DNA of 64,000 nucleotides from Fidelibacterota bacterium (GTDB taxonomy: Bacteria; Fidelibacterota; UBA2242; B5-G15): contig JACDNV010000006.1 in assembly GCA_017656425.1 (NCBI GenBank), positions 42,542-106,541 on the forward strand, read 5' to 3'. The translations under genes were made by a program, and so were the position numbers. This document shows positions 2,598 through 17,369 of this stretch, in pieces. The notes below the pieces were generated by a model. That model did not search any database and was not told the DNA's origin. It saw only the letters and a list, made by a program, of their open reading frames with translations. Position 1 is the first letter of the stretch; each line of letters opens with the position of its first letter.

Positions 2598-3005
2598 ATG
2601 GCGAAAATAGAAAAGTTTGAAGATATTGAGGCCTGGCAAAAGGCAAGAAGTTTAGTTAAAGAAGTTTATAGAGTTTGTGGATTTGAGAGATACAAAAAAG
2701 ATTATAATCTTATTGATCAAACGAGAAGCTCTGCAATTTCAATTATAGCTAACATTGCAGAAGGTTATGCCAGACGAACAAATAAAGAATTTATAAATTT
2801 TCTTGGAATGGCACATGCTTCAGCAGCAGAGCTTCAATCACATCTTTATGTCGCTTTAGATCAGAGGTATATTTCTGATCAGGATTTTAGGATCATTTAT
2901 TCATTAGCAGATCAAGTTTCTAAAATGATCCAGGGCTTTATTACTTACTTGAAAAACTCCCAAACTCCAAAACTCAAGAACTCTCAACTCAAAAGGAAAA
3001 ATTAA
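2598..3005 (+). CDS. four-helix-bundle protein of the '23S rRNA intervening sequence protein' / DGR Avd family (PF05635-like)
   Basis: 135 aa. Residues EDIEAWQKARSLVKEVYRV...RSSAISIIANIAEGYARRTNKEFINFLGMAHASAAELQSHLYVA match the family consensus (W.kA..L....y......e.y.L..Q.rRaa.Si..NIAEG..R....ef..FL..A.gS..El.t.l..a). The C-terminal tail KNSQTPKLKNSQLKRKN is encoded by the inverted repeat array. The stop overlaps the livM ATG (TAATGG). Confidence 0.75.
   Translation: MAKIEKFEDIEAWQKARSLVKEVYRVCGFERYKKDYNLIDQTRSSAISIIANIAEGYARRTNKEFINFLGMAHASAAELQSHLYVALDQRYISDQDFRIIYSLADQVSKMIQGFITYLKNSQTPKLKNSQLKRKN
2953..2993 (-). repeat. GAGTT-core micro-repeat array, inverted orientation
   Basis: Plus strand reads aaaactcccaaactccaaaactcaagaactctcaactcaaa; the reverse complement is GAGTTGA GAGTTCTT GAGTTTTG GAGTTTGG GAGTTTT. 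This is the inverted partner of array 2452-2597 on the other side of the four-helix-bundle ORF. Confidence 0.85.
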
Positions 3006-3874
3006 TGGAACATTTACTTCATATATTAGTAATCGCTGGAATATACATCATCTTGACTCTGAGCCTTAATCTCATTGTTGGATATACAGGACTGCCTGCA
3101 CTGGGTCATGCAGCCTTTTCCTGCATTGGTGCGTATACGTCGAGTCTGCTTGCGCTGTATATTGGGGTATCCCCATGGATAGGATTATTGATAGGGGGAT
3201 GTTTGGCAGCTCTGTCAGGCATTATAATAGGATATCCTGCAGTACGATTAAAAGGGGATTATCTTGCTCTGGCAACATTCGGGATGGGAGTTATTGTTTA
3301 CTCCATCGCTAAGAACTGGGTATCCCTTACAAGGGGTCCAATGGGACTTCCCGGAATCCCCGGGTTTTCTATTTTTGGTATCCAGCTATCAGAGATATGG
3401 TCTTACCTGCTTCTGGTTTCGGTTTTTGTGGCAATTACCATATTTGTTATTAACAGGATAGTAAATTCTCCATTTGGCAGGATACTTCGGTCTATCAGAG
3501 AGGACGAAATTGCCTCAGAGGCTTTAGGAAAAAATACAACCAAATATAAACTCCTGGTTTTTATTATCGGAGCATTCTTTGCTGGTATTGCTGGAAGCCT
3601 TTATGCTCACTACATAACCTTTATTGACCCTTCAAGCTTCACTGTTATGGAATCCATAACCATTCTTCTTATGGTTATCTTTGGAGGAATGGGGAGCATA
3701 TCAGGTTCTATAGTGGGAGCAGTGGTTTTGGTAGTATTTCCTGAACTTTTGAGATTTCTTGGAATGCCGTCTTCAATCGCAGCGCCTATGAGGCAAATGA
3801 TATATGGATTGTTGCTCGTATCTCTTATGCTTAAAAGACCTCAGGGAATAATGGGGGTTTATAAGTTTAAGTAA
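3005..3874 (+). CDS. livM: branched-chain amino acid ABC transporter permease LivM
   Basis: 289 aa polytopic permease with LivM-like sequence (…NLIVGYTGLPALGHAAF…GYPAVRLKGDYLALATFG…), located between livH and livG. Confidence 0.85.
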   Translation: MEHLLHILVIAGIYIILTLSLNLIVGYTGLPALGHAAFSCIGAYTSSLLALYIGVSPWIGLLIGGCLAALSGIIIGYPAVRLKGDYLALATFGMGVIVYSIAKNWVSLTRGPMGLPGIPGFSIFGIQLSEIWSYLLLVSVFVAITIFVINRIVNSPFGRILRSIREDEIASEALGKNTTKYKLLVFIIGAFFAGIAGSLYAHYITFIDPSSFTVMESITILLMVIFGGMGSISGSIVGAVVLVVFPELLRFLGMPSSIAAPMRQMIYGLLLVSLMLKRPQGIMGVYKFK

Positions 3875-4719: not shown

Positions 4720-5496
4720 ATGAACTATAATCAAAAAAAATTTGATAATAAATTTCTAACTCAAAAACTCACTAACTCAAAAACACATTTAACTCTTTTA
4801 GAAGTAAAAAACTTAACAGTACATTACGGCTCTGTCCTCGCTCTGGATGATATTTCTCTCTCTGTCAATGGGGGAGAAATTGTGGCAATGATAGGTCCGA
4901 ATGGTGCTGGAAAATCTACAGCTTTAAAGGCAATTTGTGGTCTTGTAAAATCCACATCAGGAGAAATCTTATTTCAGGGAGAAGATATAAATGGCAATCA
5001 GCCATATCAACTGGTTGAGAAAGGATTATGCCTTGTGCCAGAAGGAAGACGAGTTTTTACTTCAATGACTGTTTTAGAGAATTTGGAGATGGGAGCTTAT
5101 ACCAGAAATGATAAAAATATTCAGGAAGATATTGATAGAGTATTTACTTTATTTCCTGTTCTCAAGAAAAGACAGAAACAGAGAGCAGGAACATTGAGTA
5201 GTGGAGAACAACAGATGCTTGCTATTGGCAGGGCACTGATGCTAAAACCAAAACTGCTTTTATTAGATGAACCATCACTGGGACTTTCTCCAAATTATAT
5301 GGAAACTGTATTTGAAAAGATAAAAGAAATTAACAAAGAGGGAACTATAATTCTCCTCGTGGAGCAGAATGCCAGGATGGCTCTGGAATATGCTGATAGA
5401 GGCTATGTATTTAAAATAGGCAAAATTGCTTTTGAGGATAATGCAAAAAACCTCCTTGAAAATGATGAAATTAAACAGTCATTTTTAGGAGGATAA
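4720..5496 (+). CDS. livF: branched-chain amino acid ABC transporter ATP-binding protein LivF
   Basis: Walker A GPNGAGKST, signature LSSGEQQMLAIGRAL, Walker B LLLDEPSLG, plus the canonical LLEVKNLTVHYG start motif. An unusual 27-aa N-terminal extension contains repeat-encoded LTQKLTNSKTHLTL. Confidence 0.85.
   Translation: MNYNQKKFDNKFLTQKLTNSKTHLTLLEVKNLTVHYGSVLALDDISLSVNGGEIVAMIGPNGAGKSTALKAICGLVKSTSGEILFQGEDINGNQPYQLVEKGLCLVPEGRRVFTSMTVLENLEMGAYTRNDKNIQEDIDRVFTLFPVLKKRQKQRAGTLSSGEQQMLAIGRALMLKPKLLLLDEPSLGLSPNYMETVFEKIKEINKEGTIILLVEQNARMALEYADRGYVFKIGKIAFEDNAKNLLENDEIKQSFLGG
4757..4795 (-). repeat. GAGTT-core micro-repeat array, inverted, inside the livF N-terminal extension
   Basis: Plus strand reads ctaactcaaaaactcactaactcaaaaacacatttaactc; the reverse complement contains GAGTTAG GAGTTTTT GAGTTAG. 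Paired with 4677-4714 around the livF start codon. Confidence 0.8.
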
Positions 5497-5622: not shown

Positions 5623-5874
5623 TTATCTATTATAATTGAAATAGAATTGGTAGGATGAAGCTTTAACAAGGAAATCTTTTACTGAGCTGAATGATTCTAT
5701 GCAGTAGAATTCGTCTTCGATTAATCTGTGAGAGGATTCTACATTGGCATTAGCATTGGGGTAATGTGTCCGTAGGATCCCTAATCGGGATAGGTTATGT
5801 TTTTTACTTATCTTTGATTCTTTTCCCAAAAATCTCACAGAGAATAGCCAGTCAATGGGGTATGGTCTTATCAC
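5623..5874 (-). pseudogene. C-terminal remnant of a DDE (rve-type, IS3/IS481-like) transposase/integrase
   Basis: Only 83 aa, starting at a GTG. The sequence ...LRTHYPNANANVESSHRLIEDEFY...SFSSVKDFLVKASSYQFYFNYNR resembles the end of the rve core domain (R.h.P..NG.vER.hRtlkeEf....F.s..el...l..y..YN..RPH). There is no N-terminal catalytic region. Confidence 0.45.
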
Positions 5875-6094: not shown

Positions 6095-6484
6095 GTGATT
6101 AAATTTATGAATAATAAACAGTTAACAATTAACGAGCGAAATGAATTAGGTAGCCATGAAGAGCAACTTTTGCTTTTTTCATTAGTACCCCCTAATTTTA
6201 TGTTAGCCGATCGAAATAGTGGAGGATATGATATGAAAAGATGTTATGAATTGAAGAATTGTGGAATGGACAAGAAGTCCCCAGAAGAAGGTAGTTGTCC
6301 AGCCTATGCATCAAGTACAGATTGCTGGTACTATGACTGGGAATCCTTCTGGAAAGAGATGGCAGATGGTCCAGAAAAGGAAGAAGGAAAGAAGGGAATG
6401 TTAGCTGACTGCTCTTCTTGTCCGGTGAGAGAAGTACACAAAGAGGAAGTGGATCTGTTCATGTCAAAGGTTCGTCAAGTGTAG
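6095..6484 (+). CDS. hypothetical Cys-rich small protein (six Cys, possible metal-binding)
   Basis: 129 aa with spacing C-x5-C-x11-C-x8-C ... C-x2-C. No recognised family. It is the first ORF of the island. Confidence 0.3.
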   Translation: MIKFMNNKQLTINERNELGSHEEQLLLFSLVPPNFMLADRNSGGYDMKRCYELKNCGMDKKSPEEGSCPAYASSTDCWYYDWESFWKEMADGPEKEEGKKGMLADCSSCPVREVHKEEVDLFMSKVRQV

Positions 6485-6613
6485 AGTGGTTGATCTGAAT
6501 GTACCGAAGAGTAGCAAATGACGGCTAACAACGCCATGCACCCTGACGCGAATTCCGCTGCGCTCCATTCCCGCCGGTGATGGCGACATTATGTTGCTAC
6601 GTGTAGCTGATAG

Positions 6614-7075
6614 GTGCGAGAGAAAATGAAGAGGATGTTGTGGATTCCAATCGCCTACATGGCAGTTTTCGGCGTATTGCTGCTTATTGCCTGGCCCCAT
6701 CTTGATGCCACGGGAACCATCGGTGTGGTAAGCGTACTCGGAGGCGGCTTAGCCGGCGTGGTCGGCGCATTCGTTGGTGCGGTGGTCGCCCTGCAACGGA
6801 TAGAAAAGGAGAGCCAGACCAAGATCAAAGAATCTGCCGCCTCCCAAGCCCTGGAGCTCACGAAACTCGAGATTGGCCTACGATTGAAGGAGGGCAAGCA
6901 ACACCAACTCTTGGCAGCCGCCAAGATCTATCGTGAATTCTACAAGGCTCTCTTCAAACTCTATGACACTAAGAGGTGGCCTAAGGAAATTGAACAGCAA
7001 GGGCTCATCAACATTTACGACTTCGGCGGAGGTCATCCATCTGATGCGAAAGGTCAAGACGAAGAGGCCACATAA
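6614..7075 (+). CDS. hypothetical membrane-anchored coiled-coil protein encoded in a GC-rich foreign block
   Basis: 153 aa with an N-terminal TM helix, a Gly/Ala-rich second helix and a charged helical tail. Its GC content is much higher than the flanking DNA. Confidence 0.4.
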   Translation: MREKMKRMLWIPIAYMAVFGVLLLIAWPHLDATGTIGVVSVLGGGLAGVVGAFVGAVVALQRIEKESQTKIKESAASQALELTKLEIGLRLKEGKQHQLLAAAKIYREFYKALFKLYDTKRWPKEIEQQGLINIYDFGGGHPSDAKGQDEEAT

Positions 7076-7159
7076 CAATTCACTCCAGCCGACCGCTCGG
7101 CTTAGCCTCGCGGCGACTGAGTTAGAGCGTTATGTAAATTATTACAGAAGGAGTTAAAG

Positions 7160-7717
7160 ATGCCAATATATGAAGATTTAAAAAATGAATTACAAGAAAT
7201 TTCAGAAATATTATCTAAATTTCCTGAATCTATCCAACCTAAAGTTTTTGATATTTTAATAAACAATTTTCTAGGTCGAACAGGAAGTGAAAAAATGAAC
7301 AAAAAAGAAAATGATATAGACAAAAAAACAAAAGATAAAAAAGGTTCTAAACGGAAAATATCTTCAAAAGAAACCTTCACAATAGTTAAGGATTTAAATT
7401 TAATGGGACCAAAAGATAAACCAACTTTTAAAGATTTTTATGGTGGAAAAAAACCAAAATCAAATATAGAATTTAATGTAGTTTCGATTTACTATTTAAA
7501 AAAGATACTTAATATAGAAAAGGTAAATCTTAATCATATTTATACTTGCTATAAAGAAGTGGGAAGGAAAATTCCGAGCAATTTAAAGCAGAGCATATAT
7601 GATACTTCAGGTCCCAAATACGGTTACATTGATGCGAGTAATTCAAATGATCTAAAATTACCCACTACTGGCGAGAACCTCGTTGAGCATGAACTGCCTC
7701 GAAAAAAGAAAAAATAG
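7160..7717 (+). CDS. hypothetical Lys-rich protein
   Basis: 185 aa with good SD (aaggagttaaagATG) and an AT-rich, K-rich sequence. No recognisable motif. Confidence 0.35.
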   Translation: MPIYEDLKNELQEISEILSKFPESIQPKVFDILINNFLGRTGSEKMNKKENDIDKKTKDKKGSKRKISSKETFTIVKDLNLMGPKDKPTFKDFYGGKKPKSNIEFNVVSIYYLKKILNIEKVNLNHIYTCYKEVGRKIPSNLKQSIYDTSGPKYGYIDASNSNDLKLPTTGENLVEHELPRKKKK

Positions 7718-7726
7718 GATATTAAA

Positions 7727-8488
7727 GTGGATACTAAAATTTTACTTGAAAATATACCTAGTAAGATTCGTGATGAGCTATTTAATGCATTTAATGAAAT
7801 CTTAAAAAACTATCGTGAACAAAGATGGGAACCATCTGAACTGAATGGCGGAAAACTTTGTGAAATTATTTACACAATACTAAATGGCTATATAAATGGC
7901 CAAATTCCTGACAAACCTAAAAAGCCCAATAATTTCGTTGATGCTTGTAGAAAATTAGAATCATCCCCTACGTCTTTTTCACATTCAATAAGAATACAAA
8001 TACCAAGAATGTTGATAGCTTTATATGAAATTTGAAATAATAGAGGTGTTGGGCATTCTGGAGGCGATGTTAATCCTAATAAAATGGATGCTACAGTTGT
8101 TGTTTATATGAGCAAATGGTTAATGGCTGAGTTAATCAGAATATTTTACAAAATTGATTCAGATGAAACACAATTAGCAATCAATAATATTATTGAAACC
8201 ATTATTCCTGTTGTATGGGAAGTAGATGGAAAGTTAAGAATACTTCACCCTGAATTGAAAATGAAGGATTCTACTTTATTGCTTTTGTATCATTCAAGAA
8301 ATGGTTTAAGTGAAAAGAAGTTAGTTGAAAATTTAGAACATTCAAACCTGTCTGTGTATCGACGGGATATTTTAACAAAACTTCATAAGAAACGTTTCAT
8401 AGAATTTAACGAAAAAACCAAAATAGCAAAGATTTCGCCAAAAGGGAGAAATTATGTTGAGAATAATCTTTTAAAAAATTTAACATAA
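7727..8488 (+). CDS. hypothetical protein split by a single in-frame TGA at 8033-8035 (two ORFs in the same frame)
   Basis: ORFs 7727..8035 and 8084..8488 are both in frame 2 and are separated only by one TGA. Read-through would give ...LIALYEI*NNRGVGHSGGDVNPNKMDATVVVY... (about 253 aa). Confidence 0.35.
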
Positions 8489-8689
8489 CAAAACGCTCCG
8501 CCTGACCGCCATTCCGCTGGCATCTTATAGCGGTAGGTGAGATTGGTAGTTAGTAAAAAAGAAGAAAGTAGAAATTGTGAAACTACAAAACCCAATTGAT
8601 AACACAGGCTATATGCTATTAAAACGACATATAGCCTTAACCGCTAGACGCAACGCCTATTTTGATATCTGAAAATGTTGTGGTGAACT

Positions 8690-9715
8690 ATGACAAATAA
8701 AGTAGGTCGTAAAGAGATTGTATACAGAGACAATACTATTGATAGGGAGAATCTTCCACTTCCAATAGTGCTCTACCCTGGATTCTACGGGGCTTTTTTT
8801 GGTTTTCGGCAAACAGAAGTTTCTCCCATTATCTTGTGTTCATGCGCGAAAGAGGCAATCGAAAACTATCTGAGGTTCCGGATATCGAAGCCGATTCCAC
8901 TAAATACAGACCCTGGCAGAATGTTCGTTTTGGATTCTATGTACTTTCCACGAGCTCTAGTTGACATTTTGATGAAGCACAATGTACAAAATAACTATAA
9001 AGTAATTAATCACCTTCTATTTGAAAACAATCTTTGTCACGAGTGTAATGGGGTTATCCCAAAATATCGTTACTGTCACGAAATGTATGGAGGCGCATTT
9101 AAGCAAAACTATGGGTGGTACATAAATAAACAGGCATACGAATTTGGTATTGAACCGATATCAAACCGTGTACTTCCTGAGGTATGTCCAAGGGAAATAC
9201 TAGAAATTATCAAGCTCGACCCTATAGAAACACCCAAACGTTATCAGGAATTAGTAGAAACCAACCCTGCTGAGGCAGATAGGTTATGGAAGAAATTTCA
9301 AAAACAGAACAGGCGCGTTTGGAATATCATTGAAAACGAGGTAAGACAAAAATTTGGGCATAGAAAAATCGGGGAATCCTGGACTAGCGAAACCATTCTG
9401 TATTACATCGTACAGTCTCTTTTCCAAGACATGACTGTTATAAGACACTATCGCTCTGAATTCCTTCAAGGATTAGAACTTGATATATTTATTAAAGAAC
9501 TAAAAGTAGGTATTGAGTATCAAGGTATACAGCACTTTGAGCCAGTGGATCACTGGGGTGGTATAAAAGCTCTGCAGAAATTAAAGGCACGAGATAAAAA
9601 GAAAAGAGATATATGCAAATCTTCGGGCATAGATCTTATCTACTTTAAATATGACGAAGACTTAAGCAATGATTTGGTATTGGCTAAGTTAAAAAAATAC
9701 ATTGAAAAATTTTAA
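8690..9715 (+). CDS. fusion protein: N-terminal Cys/His cluster domain plus C-terminal DUF559/Vsr-like PD-(D/E)xK endonuclease domain
   Basis: C-terminus ...RSEFLQGLELDIFIKELKVGIEYQGIQHFEPVDHWGG...DKKKRDICKSSGIDLIYFKYDE matches the DUF559 restriction-endonuclease-like fold (D..i.e.k..IEvdG.qH...D..r...l...G..v.Rf). The middle region has LCHECNGVIPKYRYCHE, a zinc-finger-like motif. Confidence 0.5.
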   Translation: MTNKVGRKEIVYRDNTIDRENLPLPIVLYPGFYGAFFGFRQTEVSPIILCSCAKEAIENYLRFRISKPIPLNTDPGRMFVLDSMYFPRALVDILMKHNVQNNYKVINHLLFENNLCHECNGVIPKYRYCHEMYGGAFKQNYGWYINKQAYEFGIEPISNRVLPEVCPREILEIIKLDPIETPKRYQELVETNPAEADRLWKKFQKQNRRVWNIIENEVRQKFGHRKIGESWTSETILYYIVQSLFQDMTVIRHYRSEFLQGLELDIFIKELKVGIEYQGIQHFEPVDHWGGIKALQKLKARDKKKRDICKSSGIDLIYFKYDEDLSNDLVLAKLKKYIEKF

Positions 9716-9841
9716 ACTTGGCACTGCTTCTAACGGTGAATAAAAGGCTTCGCTATGCTTCACCTAAATTGTCTTCGGCAACTTCTATTATCCGAAAACC
9801 TTTATACGCCATTGCTTGTAATGGAATGGAGGTTATAAACC

Positions 9842-10741
9842 ATGATGCATAAAGGGACACGAACTACAGGTGGGAATATGCCTGCAAAACTTAAACAGAA
9901 AGTCAATAAACTATTAGACGAATTCGGAACCTTAGTCCAAGGCATTTCACAGGAGCGTCATCTTCAGAGAGCAGTTGTAAGAAGTTTGTTAACTTGTAGC
10001 TTAGTAGCGCTTTTGGACAAGAACAACCTTTTCATCCTTGCGCAGCGTCACTTTGGGATGCCGTCCTCTCTATTTATTTATGTTCCTGAAAAGCAACTAA
10101 CCCCACAGCAAGCATTAGGTAGTGCTCGATGGGAATTTGGCCTTGAGGACCCGTTTCTGATCGTTTTCCCAAGCGCGTTGCTCGAACAAGAGGAAGTACA
10201 ACGGCGGCCAGCATTAGAGGCAATTGCTGTTGCTCATGTTGATTCCGAATTTCAGAGGGTAATAAAGATGACAAGTCTTATACAAATCAATCCATTATTT
10301 GGTCCTGCATCATATAGTGTAGATGAGCGATTAGCTTTCGTACTTATGCCTTTTGCTGAGGATCTAACAAGGGTCTATACTTCCATTATCAAGCCCACGG
10401 TTGAGGCGACAGGTTTAGTTTGCCGTCGCGCTGATGATTTCAAAACTAATAAAGCGATAATTCAAGATATTTGGAAAGCAATCTGTGAAGCACGAATCGT
10501 TATTGCCGACCTTACTGATTTGAATCCCAATGTGATGTATGAGCTAGGAATTGCACATACAGTTGGTAAAGAGACAATTTTGATCTATCAACGTGGAAGA
10601 GGAAAGGATCCCAAGTTCCCATTTGATCTGGCACATATTCGAAGAATACAATACGAGGACAGTGCTACGGGTGGGAAGAAATTAGAAAACGACCTTTCCG
10701 ATACATTGAAATCTATACTTGAACCAACAGCAGTATCTTAA
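9842..10741 (+). CDS. SLOG-superfamily / nucleoside 2-deoxyribosyltransferase-like domain protein (C-terminal) with an unknown N-terminal domain
   Basis: C-terminal domain LAFVLMPFAEDLTRVYTSIIKPTVEATGLVCRRADD...IWKAICEARIVIADLTDLNPNVMYELGIAHTVGKETILI follows the NDT/LOG-like Rossmannoid pattern (vF..mPF ... viAdlt..NpNV.yElG.A.a.GKpvi). Confidence 0.45.
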   Translation: MMHKGTRTTGGNMPAKLKQKVNKLLDEFGTLVQGISQERHLQRAVVRSLLTCSLVALLDKNNLFILAQRHFGMPSSLFIYVPEKQLTPQQALGSARWEFGLEDPFLIVFPSALLEQEEVQRRPALEAIAVAHVDSEFQRVIKMTSLIQINPLFGPASYSVDERLAFVLMPFAEDLTRVYTSIIKPTVEATGLVCRRADDFKTNKAIIQDIWKAICEARIVIADLTDLNPNVMYELGIAHTVGKETILIYQRGRGKDPKFPFDLAHIRRIQYEDSATGGKKLENDLSDTLKSILEPTAVS

Positions 10742-10894
10742 AATTACCATAAGAATAGCAACGGCGTATACCAGAGTGTATATGGCTTCGGTTTCGCCTC
10801 CGTTCAAATTCCTCGCTTTGCTTTAAACTTCGGATATGTCCGGATCGTTATATGACATCTGGCTTCAGTTATTTCACAAAGTAGTGAAGTAAAT

Positions 10895-11695
10895 ATGATG
10901 ATCAATATCGACTATAAAAGCGGAATTAAAACCCTTCTGGATGAGTATAAGGGGGTTCTTAACGAAGAAATTAAAAAGGGATTGGAATGGAGACACAAAA
11001 TAGAGAGTAGAAAATTGTCCTGTGAAGATCAACAGGAGTTATTGAAAGATGTAATTGCTCAATTACTTGTTCAGGGGAAAAGTGCAAAGGGAGTAGAAAT
11101 ACAGATCAATAACATTAAAGAAGTAATTGGAGAATGGAGTACAAAAAACGTTGAGAAAAACTTGGATACTTTGGGAATGTCAAACAGGAAAATACAGAAG
11201 TTGAGAGATATTTTACAGTATTTAAAAAGCAACTCTATTGCTGTTTGGGTAATTAAACTGCATGAAGATAACAATCACATACCTCGTATGGGATTAAAAA
11301 GCGATGATGATTTTCTCAAATCCCATGGTTTTTATGAACATTTACCTGTTGACAGGCATACTCAACGTTTTTTATTTAGAACAGGCATAATTCAGTGGTA
11401 TCTAAAGAAAAATAACGATGATGTGTTAACCTTGTTTTCGGAAACATATGAAAAGAAATATAAATTTTTCCAGAAAATCGTAGTAGCACTTTGTGAAAAG
11501 TTCTGTGATGATGTATACATACAGATTCCAGATGTAAAGTTGAGATTAGCAGAAAATCCAGGCATTCTTGACATTGTGATATGGCGTCATTGTGGAGAAG
11601 ATGAAAATCTGGGTTGTAGAAATATCTGTGGAAATATATCAAGATGTAATGAATGTGTATTTAAGGAGGCTTGTTTATGGCATTTATTGAAATAA
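10895..11695 (+). CDS. Endonuclease III-like HhH-GPD superfamily protein with C-terminal Cys cluster (putative [4Fe-4S])
   Basis: IPRMGLKSDDDFLKSHGFYEHLPVDRHTQRFLFRTGII matches the HhH motif plus the VDTHVxRVxxR motif of EndoIII/MutY (LPGVGrKTA.....fg.p..PVDTHV.RV..Rlg). The C-terminus CGEDENLGCRNICGNISRCNEC resembles the EndoIII FeS loop (C-x6-C-x2-C-x5-C). Confidence 0.45.
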   Translation: MMINIDYKSGIKTLLDEYKGVLNEEIKKGLEWRHKIESRKLSCEDQQELLKDVIAQLLVQGKSAKGVEIQINNIKEVIGEWSTKNVEKNLDTLGMSNRKIQKLRDILQYLKSNSIAVWVIKLHEDNNHIPRMGLKSDDDFLKSHGFYEHLPVDRHTQRFLFRTGIIQWYLKKNNDDVLTLFSETYEKKYKFFQKIVVALCEKFCDDVYIQIPDVKLRLAENPGILDIVIWRHCGEDENLGCRNICGNISRCNECVFKEACLWHLLK

Positions 11696-12216
11696 TCTCG
11701 AAGCTCAATGCCTCGCTACCATCATGGTTTGCCCTTATGATTTAGTTCGAAATAAAAATATGGTTACCCTTTATGGACAATTTTCCAACATTGCATTTGA
11801 GATTTGGAAATACAATAAATAAGGAAGTATTTGCGCATACGCCCCGTAGTCTCAGTTCTTATTGATTAACATCGGGATTGCCTATGATCCGTGCCTGCTC
11901 TCCATTTTACAGGCTCCCAAAGATTCTTACCCTCGTTGGCTTTGTTCCGATTTCTATTATGAAAGACTTTTTATAGTTAAAGAAGGAGAAGAAGTCTTCA
12001 TTTTAACAGAGCTGGATTTGAATTAAAAAGATAAATCTATTAATGATAAATGTATCTTTTAAAAAAACACACCAGACAGGTGTCATCGTAAGATTGCGTT
12101 TTAACTTAGTCGAAACAGGAAAGAGGTATATCTATTCCCACCAATTACCCTAATAAAAATCGATATTTAATTCATTCGCTACTTTTTCCTAAAAATGTAA
12201 AATGATTAGGTGGGAT

Positions 12217-12903
12217 TTATTTAATTTTTTGCATTATTATTAAATACTTAAATCCTCTTAAATAGAAATTATACTTTTTAGCTCTTTGATGCCAGATGGG
12301 AGTATTTGAAGTCTGATTATGTCTTGCCACACAGACAATATCTACTGGTTTAAAATATTTTTCGAGAATAGAGTACATCTTAAATCCTACTGGTACAAAT
12401 ATTTTCTTTTTTGCTTGATCTCCAATAAGCCAAGCAATATACTTTCCTTTCTTTAAAATTCGATGTGCTTCTTTTGCAACCTTATCTAATTCTTCGAAAA
12501 ATCTGGGATTTTCACAAGAAATATTACCAATATTGTCTGGGCGGTCATTGTACCTAATGTTGTCTGAATAAGGTGAATCTATAAAAACAAAATCTGCTAC
12601 CCCGTTCTTTAATGGTAATCTTCTAGCGTCGGCTTGTTTTATATCCTTCCTATAAGGAACAATATCAAAACCTAAAACCTTTCGTTTTTCCTCTTTGCAA
12701 ACATCAATAGTAGTTCCACTCCCACACATTGGATCTACTACTAATTCACCTTCTTTGGTGTATCTCTGAATTAAATTCCAAATAACGAATGCAGGAGTTA
12801 CTCCTCTATATTTATTGTCTCCGTGAGGTCTATTACCATAATTTTGTGTTGGATAGTCCCAAAGAGTTGTGGTTTCAAATGGAGGCTTATTATTATTTCT
12901 CAT
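12217..12903 (-). CDS. DNA methyltransferase (N6-adenine or N4-cytosine), R-M methylase 1
   Basis: Motif I VVDPMCGSGTT and motif IV FIDSPY ((D/S)PPY-type). First gene of a three-gene M-R-M operon on the minus strand. Confidence 0.8.
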   Translation of the reverse strand: MRNNNKPPFETTTLWDYPTQNYGNRPHGDNKYRGVTPAFVIWNLIQRYTKEGELVVDPMCGSGTTIDVCKEEKRKVLGFDIVPYRKDIKQADARRLPLKNGVADFVFIDSPYSDNIRYNDRPDNIGNISCENPRFFEELDKVAKEAHRILKKGKYIAWLIGDQAKKKIFVPVGFKMYSILEKYFKPVDIVCVARHNQTSNTPIWHQRAKKYNFYLRGFKYLIIMQKIK

Positions 12904-13579
12904 TCTCCAGTAATTTTTTTAGATCATCAATGAAATGTTCAAAGAGTTTTACTTTATCACTTTCCTCAACTTCTTCATCAGTTAAAACATAACTTCCATC
13001 TAGATCTATCTCAACGATAGCTCTCCCTTTTTTAGGAGGAACTTTTCGTGTTAGAGTTCCATCTTCATCAGGGGTAATGAAGTAAACTTTAACGTGTTCG
13101 GTTGCTCTATCCTGTGAAAGTTTAAGCTTCCAATAACCTGTTTGGGCAATCCGTTCTCTCAAGGTCACCTTACTTGAAATAGCAGCCAAAACCTTACAAT
13201 TCTCTGGATTATAAATAATTATATCAACATCTGGTAGATGCAAGCCAAATTCACCATAATCAATTGCTAAGTTCCTTTTCACTTGACTCAGCTCTTTAGA
13301 TAAATTTATTGTTCTTTCTAATTTATTTCCATTAACAACTTTTAACCCAAGTTCTTCAACTTCATCAGTAATAATATATTGAACTAACTTTTCTAGATTT
13401 TTACCCTTAAATGCTCTCCAGCTTTGTTCATGATCTCCATTTGGGGTAGGATTCTTTAACCAGTCTTGTCTATGAATCTCTTTTGCTTCTTTTAATAATT
13501 CCGAAATATGCTTGTATGCGTTTACTCCAAACTTCTTTTTTTTCTTTAAATATAAATTCTTTAAATCTTCGAAATTCAT
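12893..13579 (-). CDS. putative Type II restriction endonuclease
   Basis: 228 aa ORF translationally coupled between two methyltransferase genes (overlap at 12893-12903, 4-bp gap at 13579/13583). Possible PD-(D/E)xK-like segment LPDVDIIIYNPENCK. No strong family match by eye. Confidence 0.4.
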   Translation of the reverse strand: MNFEDLKNLYLKKKKKFGVNAYKHISELLKEAKEIHRQDWLKNPTPNGDHEQSWRAFKGKNLEKLVQYIITDEVEELGLKVVNGNKLERTINLSKELSQVKRNLAIDYGEFGLHLPDVDIIIYNPENCKVLAAISSKVTLRERIAQTGYWKLKLSQDRATEHVKVYFITPDEDGTLTRKVPPKKGRAIVEIDLDGSYVLTDEEVEESDKVKLFEHFIDDLKKLLENEK

Positions 13580-13582
13580 TTT

Positions 13583-14932
13583 TTACTCCTTTAAGCCAAT
13601 TATAATATATTCAAAGGGGTAGGCTTCTGAATTTGCTTTATCATTATTAGCAAATCTCCCTGTCTTTTCATCCCTTTTTTGAGGAAGTATTTTTAGGGGG
13701 ATTTCCCTTTTTATGATTTTATCCAATTTAAACCCTGAATATTGTAAACTCTCTGAAAAAACTTCAGCATTTAAAATGCTTATACCTTTCAATACAGTAT
13801 TACCAATTACATAGCAACATCGTCCCCCTCTTTTTAAAATCCTATAACTTTCATCAAATACATCTTGCATATCGATAAAAAAAGTCTCGATCTCTTTAGC
13901 CATCTTTTTACTCTTTTGCTTCATTTTATCAACGATATTTTTAGCTATAATACTTTTCAATTTTCTCTTTTCTGAAAGCTTGTAAGCAGAACCAATGAAC
14001 TTTTTTTTATATGCCGTCAAATTATCTGCAAAATCCAACCAGATAGTAGAAAGTTGATGTAAATCAGCGTATTCATAGCTGGTTACATAAGGACTTGAGC
14101 TAACAATTAAATCTACACTATTATCCTCAACAGGCTGTTTTTTAGCATCTTGTGCTTTTATGTTTAAATATTTTATTAGATTTTCTCTAACCTCTTGAGG
14201 CACTACTTTATAAAATTCTTCATTCCCCTTTTGCATCTTTTTTAAATGTCTTCTAAACACTTCCAATGGATCGGCAGGCTTTTTTTTTAAATCTCTTGTA
14301 GGTTTAGTGCTTCCTTGAAGCCATATAGAACAATTCTTTAAAATATGACTAAAAGCTATTAATAAGAAATCTCTTATAATTTCGTCATATTCTTCGTAAA
14401 TTACCCTCAAAATTTTCCCCAATTCAATTTTGTTTTTTTCATCAAACCAATAATTTATTCTTTCGATATGTCTTTCTGGAATTAATGGAGTAATATCTTT
14501 AGAAAATAGTCCAGATAGTCTAATTAAAGTCCGTTCTATTTTCTTTTCTAGATAATTAGGATCAATTGGTGTAGACTTTACCTTTGTCATTAAATAAGCT
14601 ATTTTATTTATGTCCGTTCCACTTGCTTTAAATCCTCTCGAGATAGCAGTAACAATTGTCGTTCCACTACCCATAAAAGGATCATTAATATGAGCATCTT
14701 TAGTAGTTATATATTCATCAATTAACCTTTCTACCAATTGAGGAATAAATTTTGCTGGATATCGATGATAACAATGTGTCCATTTACCTGTATCTTTTGG
14801 TTTTAATTCATTAAAGGACCAACTCTTATCAATTTGTAATTCTCTAAAAAGCTGCAAAATATCTGTATGGTTAAAATAATTAACTTGAGATGTTAGCATT
14901 TCATTTCGTTTTATTTCGCTCACTAGTTTCAC
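13583..14932 (-). CDS. DNA methyltransferase (N6-adenine or N4-cytosine), R-M methylase 2
   Basis: Motif I INDPFMGSGTT and motif IV IVSSSPY with a long spacer (target-recognition domain). 14932 is a GTG; the first ATG (MLTSQ...) is at 14896, so the true start may be 14896. Confidence 0.8.
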   Translation of the reverse strand: MKLVSEIKRNEMLTSQVNYFNHTDILQLFRELQIDKSWSFNELKPKDTGKWTHCYHRYPAKFIPQLVERLIDEYITTKDAHINDPFMGSGTTIVTAISRGFKASGTDINKIAYLMTKVKSTPIDPNYLEKKIERTLIRLSGLFSKDITPLIPERHIERINYWFDEKNKIELGKILRVIYEEYDEIIRDFLLIAFSHILKNCSIWLQGSTKPTRDLKKKPADPLEVFRRHLKKMQKGNEEFYKVVPQEVRENLIKYLNIKAQDAKKQPVEDNSVDLIVSSSPYVTSYEYADLHQLSTIWLDFADNLTAYKKKFIGSAYKLSEKRKLKSIIAKNIVDKMKQKSKKMAKEIETFFIDMQDVFDESYRILKRGGRCCYVIGNTVLKGISILNAEVFSESLQYSGFKLDKIIKREIPLKILPQKRDEKTGRFANNDKANSEAYPFEYIIIGLKE

Positions 14933-15533: not shown

Positions 15534-17369
15534 ATGGGTAAGATTAATTTTTTAGAATATTTAAAAGACAATACAGTTCTCTTCGATGGAGCTATGGGAA
15601 CAATGCTATATTCTAAGGGAATTTTTATAAACAGATGCTTTGATGAGGTAAACTTAAGCAATCCTGAGCTTGTAAAAGAAATACATAGCGAATATATAAA
15701 GGCAGGGGCAGATGCAATCGAAACAAATACTTTCAGTGCAAACAGATATAAACTCGCAAAATTCGGACTTGTAGACAAACTATATGAAATAAATAAAAGA
15801 GGAGCAGAGATTGCAAAAGAAGTTGCACAAGATGATACCTGGATTGCAGGATCTATCGGCCCTCTTGGTGTAAAAATAGAACCAATAGGGCCTACACCTA
15901 TCGATGAGGCAAAAGATGCTTTTAAAGAACAGATAAAAGCACTAATTGATGGTGGCGTAGATTTACTTATTTTTGAAACCTTCTACGATGTAAATGAAAT
16001 TCTGCAGGCAATCTCTATTGCAAAAGATTTAACTGATATCCCTATTATTGCTCAGATGACAGTGAATGAAGACGGTAATACTCACTATGGGACACCCTCT
16101 GAGGTATTTACAAAAAAACTTGAGGAGGCTGGTGCTGATGTAATCGGAATCAATTGTAGTGTTGGTCCTCAACCAATGCTTGAAGTTGTCAAACGGATGC
16201 TAAAGGTTACCAAAAAACCTATCTCCGTACAGCCAAATGCCGGAGTCCCAAGGAATGTAGATGGAAGAAACATTTACCTTGTCTCACCTGAGTACATGGC
16301 AGAATACGCAAAAAGATACGTCAATATGGGCGCAAAAATTGTAGGTGGTTGTTGCGGTACCACTCCCCAACATATAAAGGAGATGAGAAAAGCAATTCAT
16401 TCACTAATACCAAGGAAAAGGTTTGTGGAAATTACTGAGGTCAAAAAGGAGATAGCAAGACTGAAGCCTGTACCACTCGAGCAAAGATCAAATTTCGCTA
16501 AAAAATTAAAACAGGGGGAATTTGTAACCAGTGTCGAGATGGTACCCCCAAAAGGTATAAACTCAGAAAAGGAAATTGAAAAGGCAAAAAGATTAAAAGA
16601 GGCAGGTGTTGATGCAATAAACATTCCCGATGGTCCAAGGGCTCTTGCAAGAATGGGAGCAAGTTACCTTGCAAAAATTTTACAGGATGAAGCAGGGATA
16701 GAAACCATACTGCATTATACCTGTAGAGATAAAAATCTCCTTGGGATAATGTCGGATTTACTTGGTCTCCATTCAATAGGAATTAGAAATCTTTTAATAA
16801 TAACGGGTGATCCACCAAAGATGGGAGATTATCCTGATGCCACAGCAGTATTTGATGTAGATTCAATTGGGCTTGTAAATATAGCTAAAAATTTGAACAT
16901 GGGAATAGATATTGGTGGAAATTTCATCGGTTCTCAAACTGAATATTTCATCGGTGTCGGAGTCAATCCCGGAGCTGTAGGTCTGGACTATGAACTCGAA
17001 AGATTCGGATGGAAAATAAAAGCCGGTGCAGAATTTGCAATTACCCAACCCGTATTCGATCTGGACACATTTTATAATTTCTATAAAAGAATAGAGAATT
17101 ATAAAATACCAATCATCGCAGGTGTCTGGCCACTTGTAAGCTATAAAAATGCCGAATTCCTGAACAACGAAATACCTGGCATTACCATACCAGACGATAT
17201 TATGAAAAGAATGAAAAATGCCGAAACTAAAGAGGAAGCTTTAGAAATAGGGCTCCAGGAAGCCATAAAAATAATTAAAAACATCAGAGAAATTGTTCAC
17301 GGCGTACAGATTTCAATGCCTTTCGGAAGAGTTGAAATCCCAATTAGAATCTTAGAAGAGATTATTTAA
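15534..17369 (+). CDS. bifunctional homocysteine S-methyltransferase / 5,10-methylenetetrahydrofolate reductase
   Basis: 611 aa. The N-terminal Hcy-binding domain (FDGAMGTML...GADAIETNTF...GCCGTTP) is fused to an MTHFR-like C-terminal domain (FVTSVEMVPPKG...HYTCRDKNLLG...ITGDPP). SD GGAGG is 8 nt upstream. Confidence 0.8.
   Translation: MGKINFLEYLKDNTVLFDGAMGTMLYSKGIFINRCFDEVNLSNPELVKEIHSEYIKAGADAIETNTFSANRYKLAKFGLVDKLYEINKRGAEIAKEVAQDDTWIAGSIGPLGVKIEPIGPTPIDEAKDAFKEQIKALIDGGVDLLIFETFYDVNEILQAISIAKDLTDIPIIAQMTVNEDGNTHYGTPSEVFTKKLEEAGADVIGINCSVGPQPMLEVVKRMLKVTKKPISVQPNAGVPRNVDGRNIYLVSPEYMAEYAKRYVNMGAKIVGGCCGTTPQHIKEMRKAIHSLIPRKRFVEITEVKKEIARLKPVPLEQRSNFAKKLKQGEFVTSVEMVPPKGINSEKEIEKAKRLKEAGVDAINIPDGPRALARMGASYLAKILQDEAGIETILHYTCRDKNLLGIMSDLLGLHSIGIRNLLIITGDPPKMGDYPDATAVFDVDSIGLVNIAKNLNMGIDIGGNFIGSQTEYFIGVGVNPGAVGLDYELERFGWKIKAGAEFAITQPVFDLDTFYNFYKRIENYKIPIIAGVWPLVSYKNAEFLNNEIPGITIPDDIMKRMKNAETKEEALEIGLQEAIKIIKNIREIVHGVQISMPFGRVEIPIRILEEII

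Follow-up and report, generated by a model that had tools for sequence, protein, structure and literature searches.

Probably independent integron-type cassettes encoding a nuclease, an NDT/TIR-like protein and an Ogg2-like glycosylase-type protein in a Marinimicrobia genome

The window analysed here, a 64-kb stretch of a Marinimicrobia genome, contains a variable island between livF, which ends at 5496, and a metH-like gene that starts at 15534 (Table 1). Three consecutive ORFs on the same strand (P1, P2 and P3) were found at the positions given in the first-pass annotation, separated by spacers of 126 and 153 nt, respectively; P1 and P3 are labelled “hypothetical protein” in one Ca. Marinimicrobia MAG. 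The Cys-rich protein encoded furthest upstream gave zero family matches in Pfam, NCBIfam and PHROGs. The AbiJ-like gene showed weak family matches only (AbiJ_NTD4 and PDC-S32), and its counterpart in a related locus, L022, is an unbroken 253-aa ORF. The adjoining restriction-modification (R-M) system that had been noted earlier is real, and consists of two N6_N4 methyltransferases and a BsaWI-type endonuclease on the minus strand. An rve_3 transposase fragment at 5623-5874 is the sole such remnant in the window.

Table 1. Genes and attC-like elements of the variable island (window coordinates; R1, covariance model described in the text).
Feature	Position	Strand	Basis or remark
Cys-rich protein, 129 aa; first ORF of the array	6095..6484	+	ORF list
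Possible attC-like site of another sequence type (GGCTAAC...GTTGCTA); weak evidence	6519..6606	+	By eye
Predicted membrane protein, 153 aa; cassette ORF	6614..7075	+	ORF list, Pfam scan
Intact attC-type hairpin (ACATAAC...GTTATGT)	7068..7137	+	R'' box and the stop codon of the ORF before it overlap
185-aa protein; cassette ORF, 9 nt 5' of the AbiJ-like gene	7160..7717	+	
AbiJ-N-terminal-like gene; in-frame TGA at 8033-8035	7727..8488	+	Translation compared with L022
Short attC-like hairpin directly 5' of the P1 cassette	8595..8651	+	R1 E 0.17
P1, 341 aa; N-terminal Cys/His zinc-binding-like region and C-terminal PD-(D/E)xK nuclease domain	8690..9715	+	Profiles, motifs
attC-like element of the P1 cassette	9726..9809	+	R1 E 4.8e-8, junction alignment
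P2, 299 aa; family-specific N-terminal domain (~1-145) and C-terminal NDT/TIR-like N-glycosidase-type domain	9842..10741	+	
attC-like element of the P2 cassette	10764..10855	+	R1 E 2.3e-4, junction alignment
P3, 266 aa; Ogg2-like HhH-GPD DNA glycosylase/lyase-type protein with C-terminal Cys cluster	10895..11695	+	Model, Foldseek, profile
N6_N4 methyltransferase (R-M system)	12217-12903	minus	
BsaWI-type restriction endonuclease (R-M system)	12893-13579	minus	
N6_N4 methyltransferase (R-M system)	13583-14932	minus	

A search for P1 relatives found 682 homologues, and the family alignment revealed a conserved Cys/His cluster (C50, C52, C116-H117-E118-C119, C129 and C166) and invariant ELD...EYQGxQH motifs. 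The Cys cluster, with its CxxC/HE-type region, and the PD-(D/E)xK motifs of the first-pass annotation are therefore real, whereas its DUF559 label is unsupported, because Pfam gave no DUF559/Vsr match at E ≤ 0.1 in P1 or in the 38 family members scanned. Sequence comparisons link the C-terminal domain to DUF2726 and phage homing-endonuclease-like proteins rather than to DUF559. DUF2726 (PF10881) matched nothing in P1 itself and was weak in 3 of the 38 family members (best E 0.041); in phage homologues of the domain, the homologous stretch scored 28.5 and 27.3 bits, compared to a cut-off of 24.7. The likeness to these free-standing phage proteins (PHROG 559, 9084 and 3339; E 1e-9 to 1e-18) lies in the homologous C-terminal domain, in the Zn-finger-type modules that precede it, and in occurrence in phages or prophages. 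P1 differs from them in its full-length 340-aa architecture, which corresponds to a family without assigned function (phrog_19778, 1.9e-68; other PHROG matches were named homing or HNH endonuclease), and in its location, either in an integron-type cassette or in a prophage slot. In prophage-like contigs, homologues of P1 sit between a cI-like repressor and an integrase, a position as compatible with exclusion or defence as with a selfish role. To judge from fold and context, P1 would be a Zn-finger-guided PD-(D/E)xK DNA nuclease.

The C-terminal NDT-like domain that had been proposed for P2 was borne out by a match to the PADLOC “Effector TIR” model (5e-9) and by the fold. The AlphaFold model (pLDDT 84) shows the three-layer, flavodoxin-like fold of the NDT/TIR (TIR-DrHyd-SLOG) clade as defined previously (PMC9503650), in which a conserved Glu follows the central strand; Glu234, in the motif YELG, is invariant in the P2 family, for which 1407 homologues were found in bacteria and archaea. 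Pfam Nuc_deoxyrib_tr (PF05014) scored 16.7 bits (E 0.0085), below its gathering score of 28.8, and relatives of the N-terminal domain were not detected outside the P2 family. Immunity effectors of the TIR/NDT (DrHyd) type, such as CBASS TIR effectors and the DUF4062 “Swarozyc”, a single-protein NADase (bioRxiv 10.64898/2026.05.01.722283), have the same fold as the P2 C-terminus, with a Glu at the catalytic position. They likewise combine an accessory domain and an effector in a single protein, and are patchy, horizontally transferred and often adjacent to defence genes. Unlike these effectors, P2 has no DUF4062, Pfam TIR or Pfam NDT match above cut-off; the effector is placed at the C-terminus, the N-terminal domain is confined to the P2 family, and activity and defensive role are ones that we infer. 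Fold and context suggest that P2 may consist of a sensor domain and an NDT/TIR-like N-glycosidase, which, on activation, would break down NAD+ or a nucleotide.

For P3, the HhH-GPD fold was confirmed by Foldseek and by profile comparison. All Foldseek matches listed for the AlphaFold model (pLDDT 91) were HhH-GPD glycosylases, the best being Ogg2, followed by EndoIII-3 and MutY. Archaeal and bacterial Ogg2 8-oxoguanine glycosylase/lyases were the best structural matches (3n0u and 3knt; probability 1.0, TM 0.5-0.65) and the best profile matches (3fhg and 3fhf; E 0.002-0.004, with 0.0024 for 3fhg), at an identity of about 16%. P3 combines the fold with a catalytic Lys, placed in the HhH motif, and with an Asp some 18 residues further on; K135, D153 and H155 are invariant (29 of 29 sequences), and the catalytic segment G-x-K...(V/I)-D-R-H is common to Ogg2 and P3. 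Curated family models stayed below cut-off (Pfam Ogg-HhH, 16 bits vs 27; NCBIfam NF002305, 15 vs 183). In contrast to Ogg2, P3 carries an additional 60-residue C-terminal extension, whose Cys cluster is real and contains six conserved cysteines, not five as first counted: C233, C241 and C245-x5-C251-x2-C254-x5-C260. The C-x5-C-x2-C-x5-C pattern resembles the Fe-S loop of EndoIII and MutY, with spacing one residue off C-x6-C-x2-C-x5-C, and the pattern is kept in 25-26 of 26 sequences. Integron-borne HhH glycosylases have been reported to defend against phages with modified DNA, and these Dag families, to which P3 is likened by fold and context alone, share with it the HhH-superfamily fold, the single-gene format, a mobile, cassette-type AT-rich context and sporadic distribution (bioRxiv 10.1101/2025.10.29.685425). 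P3 differs from them in its conserved Cys-rich C-terminus and in the Ogg2-type Lys, the retention of which predicts lyase activity. Fold and context are consistent with a glycosylase/AP-lyase of the Ogg2 type, which would cut out an unusual base, such as a modified base of phage DNA, and nick the strand.

The first-pass annotation had proposed that the nuclease, the base-swapping enzyme or N-glycosidase, and the glycosylase act jointly as one system, either to modify or exchange DNA bases, by analogy with Dpd 7-deazaguanine systems, or to attack phage nucleotides or DNA, and had made the proposal depend on linkage of the genes in other genomes. The three genes are indeed co-oriented across the 126- and 153-nt spacers, each fold has nucleic acids or N-glycosidic bonds as its target, and the attC-like elements between the genes are decayed (see below), so that cassette excision would not separate them in the present lineage. 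In a tblastn search over 265 fetched related loci, P1 was found in 163, P2 in 96 and P3 in 9, and the full trio was found only in L022, which is the same locus (98% DNA identity). The block is retained there, with P1 and P3 intact, but P2 is split by a frameshift. The trio, and pairs of its members, are absent from the 264 other loci that carry a homologue of one member, except for L256, where a P1 homologue adjoins a different TIR-like protein of another architecture. No recurrent partner emerged when neighbouring genes were clustered for P2 (29 full-length loci) and P1 (79 full-length loci), and even a P2 of 97% identity and a P1 of 92% identity are flanked by other genes. A Pfam scan of the genes at 6095-14932 found no TGT-type transglycosylase (DpdA-like) or other Dpd-like component. 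Because the genes are not linked elsewhere, the one-system reading fails; it is close to refuted and very improbable.

DNA comparisons demonstrated directly that each gene moves alone. Homology to other contigs ends about 20-50 nt past each gene, at a GTTA-type core. The P1 module (8639-9734) is the sole stretch shared with L023 and L024 (94% DNA identity), the P2 module (9802-10793) is the sole stretch shared with L010 (98%), L011-13 (83%) and L001 (77%), and the P3 module (10850-11735) is the sole stretch shared with L015-18 (85%). The left breakpoint at the R' core reads G|TTATACGCC in L010 and L001, and G|TTAGACGC in L023. The BLAST breakpoints at 8639, 9802 and 10850 coincide with R' boxes, and the same cassettes, bounded at G|TT, occur in different arrays. 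In L010, two attC sites lie about 27 nt apart, forming an empty cassette, and the cassette order of L023 differs from that of L186.

A first folding test of the spacers between P1, P2 and P3 found nothing, and a strict AAC/GTT-plus-stem scan of the window gave matches no more often than in shuffled sequence. A covariance model (R1; home-made, not that of IntegronFinder) was built from 11 elements of L010, L015, L017, L023 and L186; it contains no window sequences, but its training elements were gathered as sequences similar to a seed, and that seed took in 9726-9809 and 10764-10855 of the window; the R1 search is therefore not fully independent. The eleven elements are alike in having TAAC...GTTA cores, an L stem of 12 bp and an internal hairpin. 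Pairing was found in 94.8% of cells, compared with 73% after shuffling and 30-44% with the partner slid; compensatory changes occur at 14 pairs, and TAAC/GTTA is nearly invariant. The family thus has the attC architecture (R''-L''...L'-R', RYYYAAC/GTTRRRY cores, covarying stems), with the cores in the window partly mutated. As single-stranded DNA, the relatives' elements fold far better than shuffles (z -2.6 to -6.1). R1 matches in the window lie on the plus strand, between genes, and those in other loci are all co-oriented with the ORFs.

The elements of the window are preserved to different degrees. The bottom strand of 7068-7137 folds with z -3.65 (0 of 200 shuffles as good), with a weak R1 match (E 2.2), and we take this element to resemble the classical attC of aadA7. 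The hairpin at 8595-8651 folds, over 8597-8651, with z -3.99 (0 of 200 shuffles as good); its R' core is GCTAGAC, compared with GTTAGAC in L023, and homology to L023 and L024 begins inside it. In 9726-9809 the L stem has three mismatches (z -1.45) and the R' core is TTTATAC; the P2 cassette starts with TTATAC. The 5' half of 10764-10855 shares homology with the attC that P2 cassettes carry at other loci, its arms are not complementary (z +0.23), and its R' core, GTTATAT, lies at 10847-10853; it is a decayed or hybrid element. Among the three R' cores of the window, both GCTAGAC and TTTATAC carry mutations. On the strength of their z values, the sites on either side of P2 are read as decayed; their stems no longer pair fully, and this section of the array is probably frozen. 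The site at 6519-6606 folds no better than shuffles (z -0.88) and was not matched by R1, and P3 is the last cassette of the array, with no attC 3' of it.

An integron integrase is absent across the window, as judged by a search for tyrosine recombinases related to the integrase of L023. In L023, a tyrosine recombinase is encoded upstream of the array that carries the 92% P1 homologue; among solved structures, its best match is the integron integrase VchIntIA (E 9.5e-47). Fragments of the same recombinase are found 5' of the arrays in L186 and L015-18 as well. The L023 recombinase scored 237 against TIGR02249, below the cut-off of 265, and in comparison with VchIntIA (2a3v) the segment equivalent to IntI residues 180-238 comprises only 17 residues. 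The recombinase does not have the additional domain specific to IntI, and it runs in the same direction as the cassettes. Both points set it apart from integron IntI, so that membership in the canonical integron family is not established; no complete integron (IntI with the additional domain beside an array) is present in the window, and L023 falls short of one.

The intergenic elements might alternatively not be attC sites at all, but lineage-specific intergenic repeats, such as REP-like elements or terminators, in a defence island of independent genes assembled by homologous or illegitimate recombination. Such an origin would accord with the window's lack of an integrase, with the failure of 9726-9809 and 10764-10855 to fold above shuffles, with the recombinase's missing domain, and with a slight enrichment in a terminator-like scan of the region (10 vs 4.1 expected). 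Against it stand elements that open with TAAC and close with GTTA, lie solely 3' of co-oriented ORFs and have covarying stems and fixed core boxes, together with homology breakpoints placed precisely at the G|TTA junction, the occurrence of elements in tandem around an empty cassette, and the presumed likeness of 7068-7137 to the aadA7 attC. This explanation is regarded as improbable. The attC-like elements between the genes, and the boundaries at their cores, identify the region as an integrase-less cassette array (CALIN), a category that calls for two or more attC sites spaced by less than 4 kb and for the absence of an integrase close by; 9726-9809 and 10764-10855, found with the home-made R1, lie 955 nt apart. 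The array resembles CALINs (Cury et al. 2016, PMC4889954) in its succession of short ORFs that all point the same way, with an imperfect inverted repeat bearing TAAC/GTTA-type cores behind each. CALINs and sedentary chromosomal integrons also share with this array the G|TT boundaries, the reshuffling of the same cassettes and the presence of empty cassettes; relative to sedentary chromosomal integrons, the window has no integrase and several of its attC are decayed. No integron report for Marinimicrobia was found in the literature searched.

The reading preferred here, to which we assign a probability of roughly 0.8, is that P1, P2 and P3 are independent integron-type cassettes in a plus-strand CALIN of a Marinimicrobia genome, spanning ~6.1-11.7 kb, and are probably one-gene phage-defence modules. 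The cassettes, unrelated to one another, would have been captured separately by site-specific recombination at a GTTA-type core, each with an attC of its own at the outset. P1, P2 and P3 are adjacent and co-oriented because integron arrays are built in this way, not because of a joint function. The fallback suggestion of the first-pass annotation, three stacked single-gene defence proteins, comes close to this evidence, in that each gene has its own cassette; the defensive role is a part that we infer.

It is possible, though unlikely, that the cassettes are independent and serve no defence, with P3 as a spare 8-oxoguanine-type glycosylase, P1 as a selfish homing-endonuclease-like protein and P2 as a nucleotide-salvage or nucleoside-hydrolase enzyme. 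The catalytic Lys and Asp of Ogg2 are kept in P3, one homologue of which (L019) lies among housekeeping genes; P3 homologue sites include a position after pheS in a GC-rich bacterium and one between GluRS and methyltransferase genes in an archaeon. In L015-18, however, the genome is GC-rich and P3 is part of an AT-rich insert, next to what remains of a recombinase. For P1, the nuclease domain is joined in the same protein to NUMOD, CapR and DUF4379 Zn-finger modules in phage homing-endonuclease-like homologues, and a P1-type nuclease-domain protein is located directly upstream of the terminase genes in Clostridium phage phiCT19406A. The nearest folds to P2 include true NDTs, MilB and Rcl, but salvage NDTs are missing its large conserved N-terminal domain, P2 is spread patchily over bacterial and archaeal phyla at 55-60% identity, and it often adjoins defence genes. 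These neighbours include GmrSD, SEFIR/TIR, DUF4062, Schlafen-like, type III-like and type IIG R-M, and mad3/AriA-like ATPase genes. The expected co-occurrence with defence islands held in part, with recognisable defence genes in about 6 of the 14 independent P2 contexts looked at and none recognisable in the rest.

Defence systems have been reported in integron cassettes, and sedentary chromosomal integrons have been described as anti-phage stores (bioRxiv 10.1101/2024.07.02.601686), with defence-type gene content like that seen here. Together with the neighbours of P2 and the prophage position of P1, these published cassettes make a defensive role plausible for the independent cassettes described here. 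Each gene would be a self-contained, one-gene module of the type that integron arrays stockpile, with an anti-phage function as the most likely one.

The three genes P1, P2, and P3 of this Candidatus Marinimicrobia (Neomarinimicrobiota) MAG were found to be independent cassettes, and each is an uncharacterised single-gene module carried by a cassette array. The ORF list confirmed three co-oriented plus-strand ORFs at exactly the positions proposed by the first-pass annotation, and the neighbouring restriction-modification (R-M) system also proved real, being of type II and encoded on the minus strand, downstream of P3. The proposal that the trio forms one undescribed base-modification or defence system did not hold. 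Genomes, metagenomes, and viral contigs supplied 265 loci (L001 onwards) that surround homologues of the individual proteins, and among these tblastn detected P1 in 163, P2 in 96, and P3 in 9. All three occurred together only in L022, which is 98.0% identical to window 7309-11804 over 4506 nt and is thus this very locus, from the same population; a frameshift splits P2 in L022, and P1 and P3 are intact. Elsewhere, a 97%-identical P2 precedes DUF3644, GmrSD, and SNF2 helicase genes (L010), and an 84%-identical P2 precedes SEFIR/TIR, GmrSD, Ymh, DUF4062-HATPase, and Schlafen-like genes (L011). A 92%-identical P1 lies between an AbiJ-like gene and an unrelated 135-aa gene (L023), 78%-identical copies of P3 are located after pheS (L015-L018), and a 57%-identical copy is flanked by GluRS and methyltransferase genes in an archaeon (L019). 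Clustering of the neighbours in full-length loci (29 for P2 and 79 for P1) revealed no recurrent partner, and conservation of the trio as a neighbourhood was thus not observed. The single P1/P2-like adjacency encountered (L256) was rejected as linkage, since the neighbour is a different 261-aa protein with an N-terminal TIR-like domain. The adjacency and co-orientation of P1-P3 reflect the building of a cassette array and not an operon; the initial observation was largely right, its headline interpretation was not.

Coordinates of the island, its modules, and its surroundings (window positions unless a locus is named)
Feature	Position	Strand	Remarks
Unannotated 211-aa gene	62-697		precedes AbiEii-type toxin gene
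AbiEii-type nucleotidyltransferase toxin gene	701-1513
First branched-chain amino-acid permease gene, two ORFs	1563-2132, 2150-2461
'23S rRNA-intervening sequence protein' family gene	2598-3005
livF-like gene, end of liv ABC-transporter operon	4720-5496		left border of island
rve_3 integrase-core match (83-aa ORF), transposase remnant	5623-5874	-	island's left edge
attC-like site	7068-7137	+	E 2.2
AbiJ-N-terminal-like gene	7727-8488		in-frame TGA at 8033-8035
attC-like site	8595-8651	+	E 0.17
P1 module	8639-9734		L023, L024 (94% DNA identity)
P1	8690-9715	+	341 aa; MBO8130972.1, annotated hypothetical protein
attC-like site	9726-9809	+	E 4.8e-8
P2 module	9802-10793		L010 (98%), L011-13 (83%), L001 (77%)
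P2	9842-10741	+	299 aa
attC-like site	10764-10855	+	E 2.3e-4
P3 module	10850-11735		L015-18 (85%)
P3	10895-11695	+	266 aa; MBO8130974.1, annotated hypothetical protein
N6_N4 MTase	12217-12903	-	R-M locus
BsaWI-type REase	12893-13579	-	R-M locus
Second MTase of R-M locus	13583-14932	-
metH/MTHFR-like gene	15534-17369		right border of island
Recombinase fragments	L186 1260-1400; L015-L018 7032-7139

DNA-level comparison revealed that each gene is a separate DNA module with sharp ends. In the junction alignment, the left ends were located at GTTA-type cores; before P2 in L010 and L001 the break falls between G and TTATACGCC, and before P1 in L023 between G and TTAGACGC. In other loci, each gene is followed on its 3′ side by an element of about 85 nt with the arrangement TAAC-stem...stem-(4-6 nt)-GTTA. 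Alignment of 11 of these elements, from L010, L015, L017, L023, and L186, revealed three helices, one formed by TAAC/GTTA pairing, one by a 12-bp stem, and one by an inner hairpin of 5 bp, with 94.8% paired cells, compared to 73% in shuffled alignments and 30-44% with slid partners, and with compensatory changes at 14 pairs. In their layout, R''-L''...L'-R', the elements correspond to integron attC sites. These 11 elements, with no window sequence among them, served to build a covariance model, which was used to scan the whole window without filters and matched four sites, all on the plus strand and all in inter-ORF spacers, the rest being noise at E > 1.6. Every model match in 100 other loci was co-oriented with the ORFs, and further matches were located upstream of the P2 homologue in L002 and farther along the arrays of L010 and L015. 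Two intact attC-like sites about 27 nt apart in L010 (1073-1291) constitute an empty cassette; the second site has almost the same sequence as the one that precedes the P2 cassette (L010 15-118).

Single-stranded DNA folding against shuffled sequences gave z values of -2.6 to -6.1 for intact sites, and of -3.65 and -3.99 for window 7068-7137 and 8597-8651, respectively. The two sites flanking P2 folded no better than shuffles (z -1.45 for 9726-9809 and +0.23 for 10764-10855); these sites are decayed, having kept the family sequence and lost stem complementarity. A first folding of the spacers had been negative (z about 0), because the P2-flanking sites are decayed and the folded stretches missed good hairpins, and the initial rejection of attC sites in the spacers was overturned once intact copies from other loci were compared. 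A strict attC finder based on a regex plus a stem could not accommodate bulged stems or mutated cores, and gave 3 matches in the window, compared to 5.2 in shuffles. An attC family with clear covariation is hereby documented in Marinimicrobia-related and other metagenomic contigs. Rfam searches of the whole 64-kb window at gathering thresholds detected no tRNA gene and no other RNA family, and a promoter scan showed no enrichment (17 found, 24 expected) and no evidence of promoters belonging to the cassettes.

No relative of an integron integrase was found within the window. Arrays that lack an integrase and hold two or more attC sites spaced by less than 4 kb are usually defined as CALINs (PMC4889954; bioRxiv 10.1101/2022.02.06.479319), and the attC-like sites of the window, with no integrase, thus form a CALIN by this definition. 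The rve_3 remnant occupies the expected position of an integron integrase and attI. In L023, the array starts downstream of a tyrosine recombinase gene (2707-3804) that is co-oriented with the cassettes. Its product passes the NF040815 model ('tyrosine recombinase/integron integrase') with 245.6 against a cut-off of 220; on the integron-integrase model TIGR02249 it scores 237, short of the cut-off (265). Among solved structures, its nearest relative is the integron integrase VchIntIA (E 9.5e-47), whose residues 180-238, which include the IntI-specific additional domain, have just 17 counterpart residues in the L023 recombinase. The L023 recombinase thus appears to lack this domain. C-terminal fragments of this type of recombinase, 77-83% identical, are located just upstream of the arrays in L186 and L015-L018. 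As judged from sequence, the L023-type platform resembles an integron, a likeness that stops short of established canonical IntI-dependent membership, and arrays of this type could represent a variant integron platform.

The cassettes inactivated differ between the two populations, being the AbiJ-N-terminal-like gene in the window and the frameshifted P2 in L022. In L022, this AbiJ-N-terminal-like gene, located upstream of P1, forms an ORF of 253 aa; in the window it is split into 102 and 134 aa by an in-frame TGA that is CGA (Arg) in L022. Outside the island, the AbiEii-type toxin gene and the 211-aa gene, which is probably its AbiEi partner, lie directly upstream of the liv transporter operon; the first permease gene of the region is broken into two ORFs, and the '23S rRNA-intervening sequence protein' family gene separates the first permease gene from the second.

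None of the curated Pfam and NCBIfam models reached its cut-off with P1, P2, or P3; solved-structure searches with the single sequences gave nothing useful, and profile searches for P1 and P2 were empty or noise. The P1 family (about 340 aa, 682 matches) is well conserved and includes Bacteroidota, CPR, and Nanoarchaeota. The family alignment revealed invariant C50, C52, C116-H117-E118-C119, C129, and C166 in the N-terminal half, and invariant E263, E276-Y-Q-G-x-Q-H282, R301-D302, and K305 in the C-terminal half. DUF559, the label first given to P1, was undetected by Pfam in P1 and 38 relatives. Phage proteins with the P1-type C-terminal domain pass the Pfam cut-off over the homologous stretch for DUF2726, a family of the PD-(D/E)xK clan, and join this domain to DUF4379 treble-clef Zn-finger, CapR, and NUMOD modules. 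Among PHROGs, phrog_19778 matches P1 at 1.9e-68, and others are named HNH endonuclease, homing endonuclease, and intron-encoded nuclease. P1 is predicted to be a DNA-cutting protein composed of a Zn-finger and a PD-(D/E)xK nuclease. Its full-length homologues occupy two distinct positions in phages: in temperate phages such as Clostridium phage phiCT19406A (L266 4998-6086), the copy is directly upstream of the small and large terminase genes, and those in prophage-like contigs (L105-L108, L265) lie at the prophage end, between a cI-like repressor and a tyrosine integrase. A tyrosine integrase was located within 4 kb of the P1 homologue in 9 of 79 full-length loci.

The P2 family (about 300 aa, 1407 matches) maintains 55-60% identity across very distant hosts, including Planctomycetota, Burkholderiales, Chloroflexota, Methanomethylophilus, and Odin- and Heimdallarchaeota. 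Its C-terminal motifs are FVLMPF, RADD, IADLT..NPNVMYELGxAHT.GK, and FPFD..H, and Glu234 is invariant in the alignment. Comparison of the AlphaFold model (pLDDT 84) with known folds gave scores of 11.7 and 11.5 for nucleoside 2-deoxyribosyltransferases (NDT), 11.2 for a TIR domain, 11.1 for MilB, and 10.8 for Rcl, and the PADLOC CBASS 'Effector TIR' model matched P2 at 5e-9. These two results place the domain on the NDT/TIR side of the TIR-DrHyd-SLOG clade (PMC9503650); the original SLOG/NDT-like call is upheld as NDT/TIR-like. LOG-like proteins score about 8. The first 145 residues fold into an alpha/beta domain of their own, which an exhaustive search found confined to the P2 family (72 clusters, always N-terminal). 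No fusion to other effectors was present, the 72 clusters having the same architecture or being fragments, and the argument for a 'swappable effector' could therefore not be made. Two candidate partners picked by size were unrelated; one is the 331-aa gene that precedes P2 in L002, the other the 218-aa gene that follows P2 in L004. The N-terminal domain would act as a trigger sensor, and the N-glycosidic bond of NAD+ or of a nucleotide would be hydrolysed through Glu234, a mode of action that would parallel TIR- and NDT-type effectors of immunity, for example Swarozyc, a DUF4062 NADase (bioRxiv 10.64898/2026.05.01.722283).

The P3 family is small (32 clusters, with Hecatellales and Thermococcus among its members). 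The HhH-GPD fold first proposed for P3 was confirmed: its model is confident (pLDDT 91, pTM 0.90), the Foldseek matches listed were all HhH-GPD glycosylases, with Ogg2 (3n0u, 3knt) first, then EndoIII-3 and MutY, and the family profile matched Ogg2 among solved structures at E 0.002-0.02. The segment GLKSDDDFLK.HGFYEH.PVDRHT lines up with the catalytic Lys and Asp of Ogg2, and K135, D153, and H155 are invariant. The Cys loop first noted corresponds to a conserved C-terminal cluster, with six conserved Cys instead of five (including C245-x5-C251-x2-C254-x5-C260), and a spacing that differs by one residue from the EndoIII/MutY Fe-S loop. P3 would flip out and excise a non-standard base, and would nick at the AP site through K135. 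A parallel is provided by the integron-borne HhH 'Dag' glycosylases, which restrict phages with modified guanines (bioRxiv 10.1101/2025.10.29.685425). The P3 homologue of L015-L018 (7026-8000) is in an AT-rich insert right after pheS of a GC-rich bacterium; the insert also carries the recombinase C-terminal remnant and a 142-aa multi-CxxC zinc-ribbon protein. All four independent contigs end within 1-2 kb downstream, which suggests a variable or repetitive region.

Each cassette would constitute a self-contained module. The neighbours of P2 homologues include GmrSD, TIR, and R-M genes; in L025 a type IIG enzyme is encoded immediately upstream, and in L030 a mad3/AriA-like ATPase is among the neighbours. 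Chromosomal integron cassettes are reported to encode defence systems often (bioRxiv 10.1101/2024.07.02.601686). A defensive role of the three cassettes is favoured from context and literature, because of these neighbours, the prophage position of P1, and the reported defence content of integron cassettes. Repair by P3, whose closest structural matches are Ogg2 glycosylases, a selfish role of P1, whose phage relatives carry homing-endonuclease names, and a metabolic role of P2, with its likeness to NDTs, are the less favoured alternatives to defence.

Bacterial contigs share these cassettes with archaeal ones, which agrees with the reported movement of cassettes across domains (bioRxiv 10.1101/2022.02.06.479319). 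Archaeal MAGs with P2 and P3 homologues are those of Odin- and Heimdallarchaeota, Hecatellales, Thermococcus, and Methanomethylophilus (L001, in a GatD/GatE context; L004-L009, Methanomethylophilus; homologue entries P0035, P0111, P0125, and P0141). The P2 cassette of L001 retains the upstream GTTATAC core and the beginning of the downstream attC; these occurrences and cassette ends fit cross-domain transfer. The P2 family, with at least 1400 cluster representatives from Marinimicrobia to Asgard archaea, is annotated as 'hypothetical protein' or unnamed. It is possible, if rather unlikely, that P2 is at once a new family of one-protein immune effectors, a cassette spread among bacteria and archaea, and a passenger of a variant integron platform; its private N-terminal sensor would then activate an NDT/TIR-like N-glycosidase, with depletion of NAD+ or a nucleotide as the outcome, and the platform may use an IntI-related recombinase without the canonical additional domain, co-oriented with the cassettes.

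These findings correct a tempting over-reading, that of an operon from adjacency, and provide three compact, easily cloned candidates for single-gene defence or DNA-processing modules, with natural cassette boundaries now known: P1, a nuclease of 341 aa; P2, a 299-aa protein that joins a putative sensor to an NDT/TIR-like enzyme; and P3, a 266-aa Ogg2-like glycosylase with a possible Fe-S-type Cys cluster. The main interest lies in these candidates for single-gene defence screens and in the atypical recombinase. If a co-oriented IntI-like recombinase without the additional domain does service these sites, the definition of integron-like platforms would be widened.
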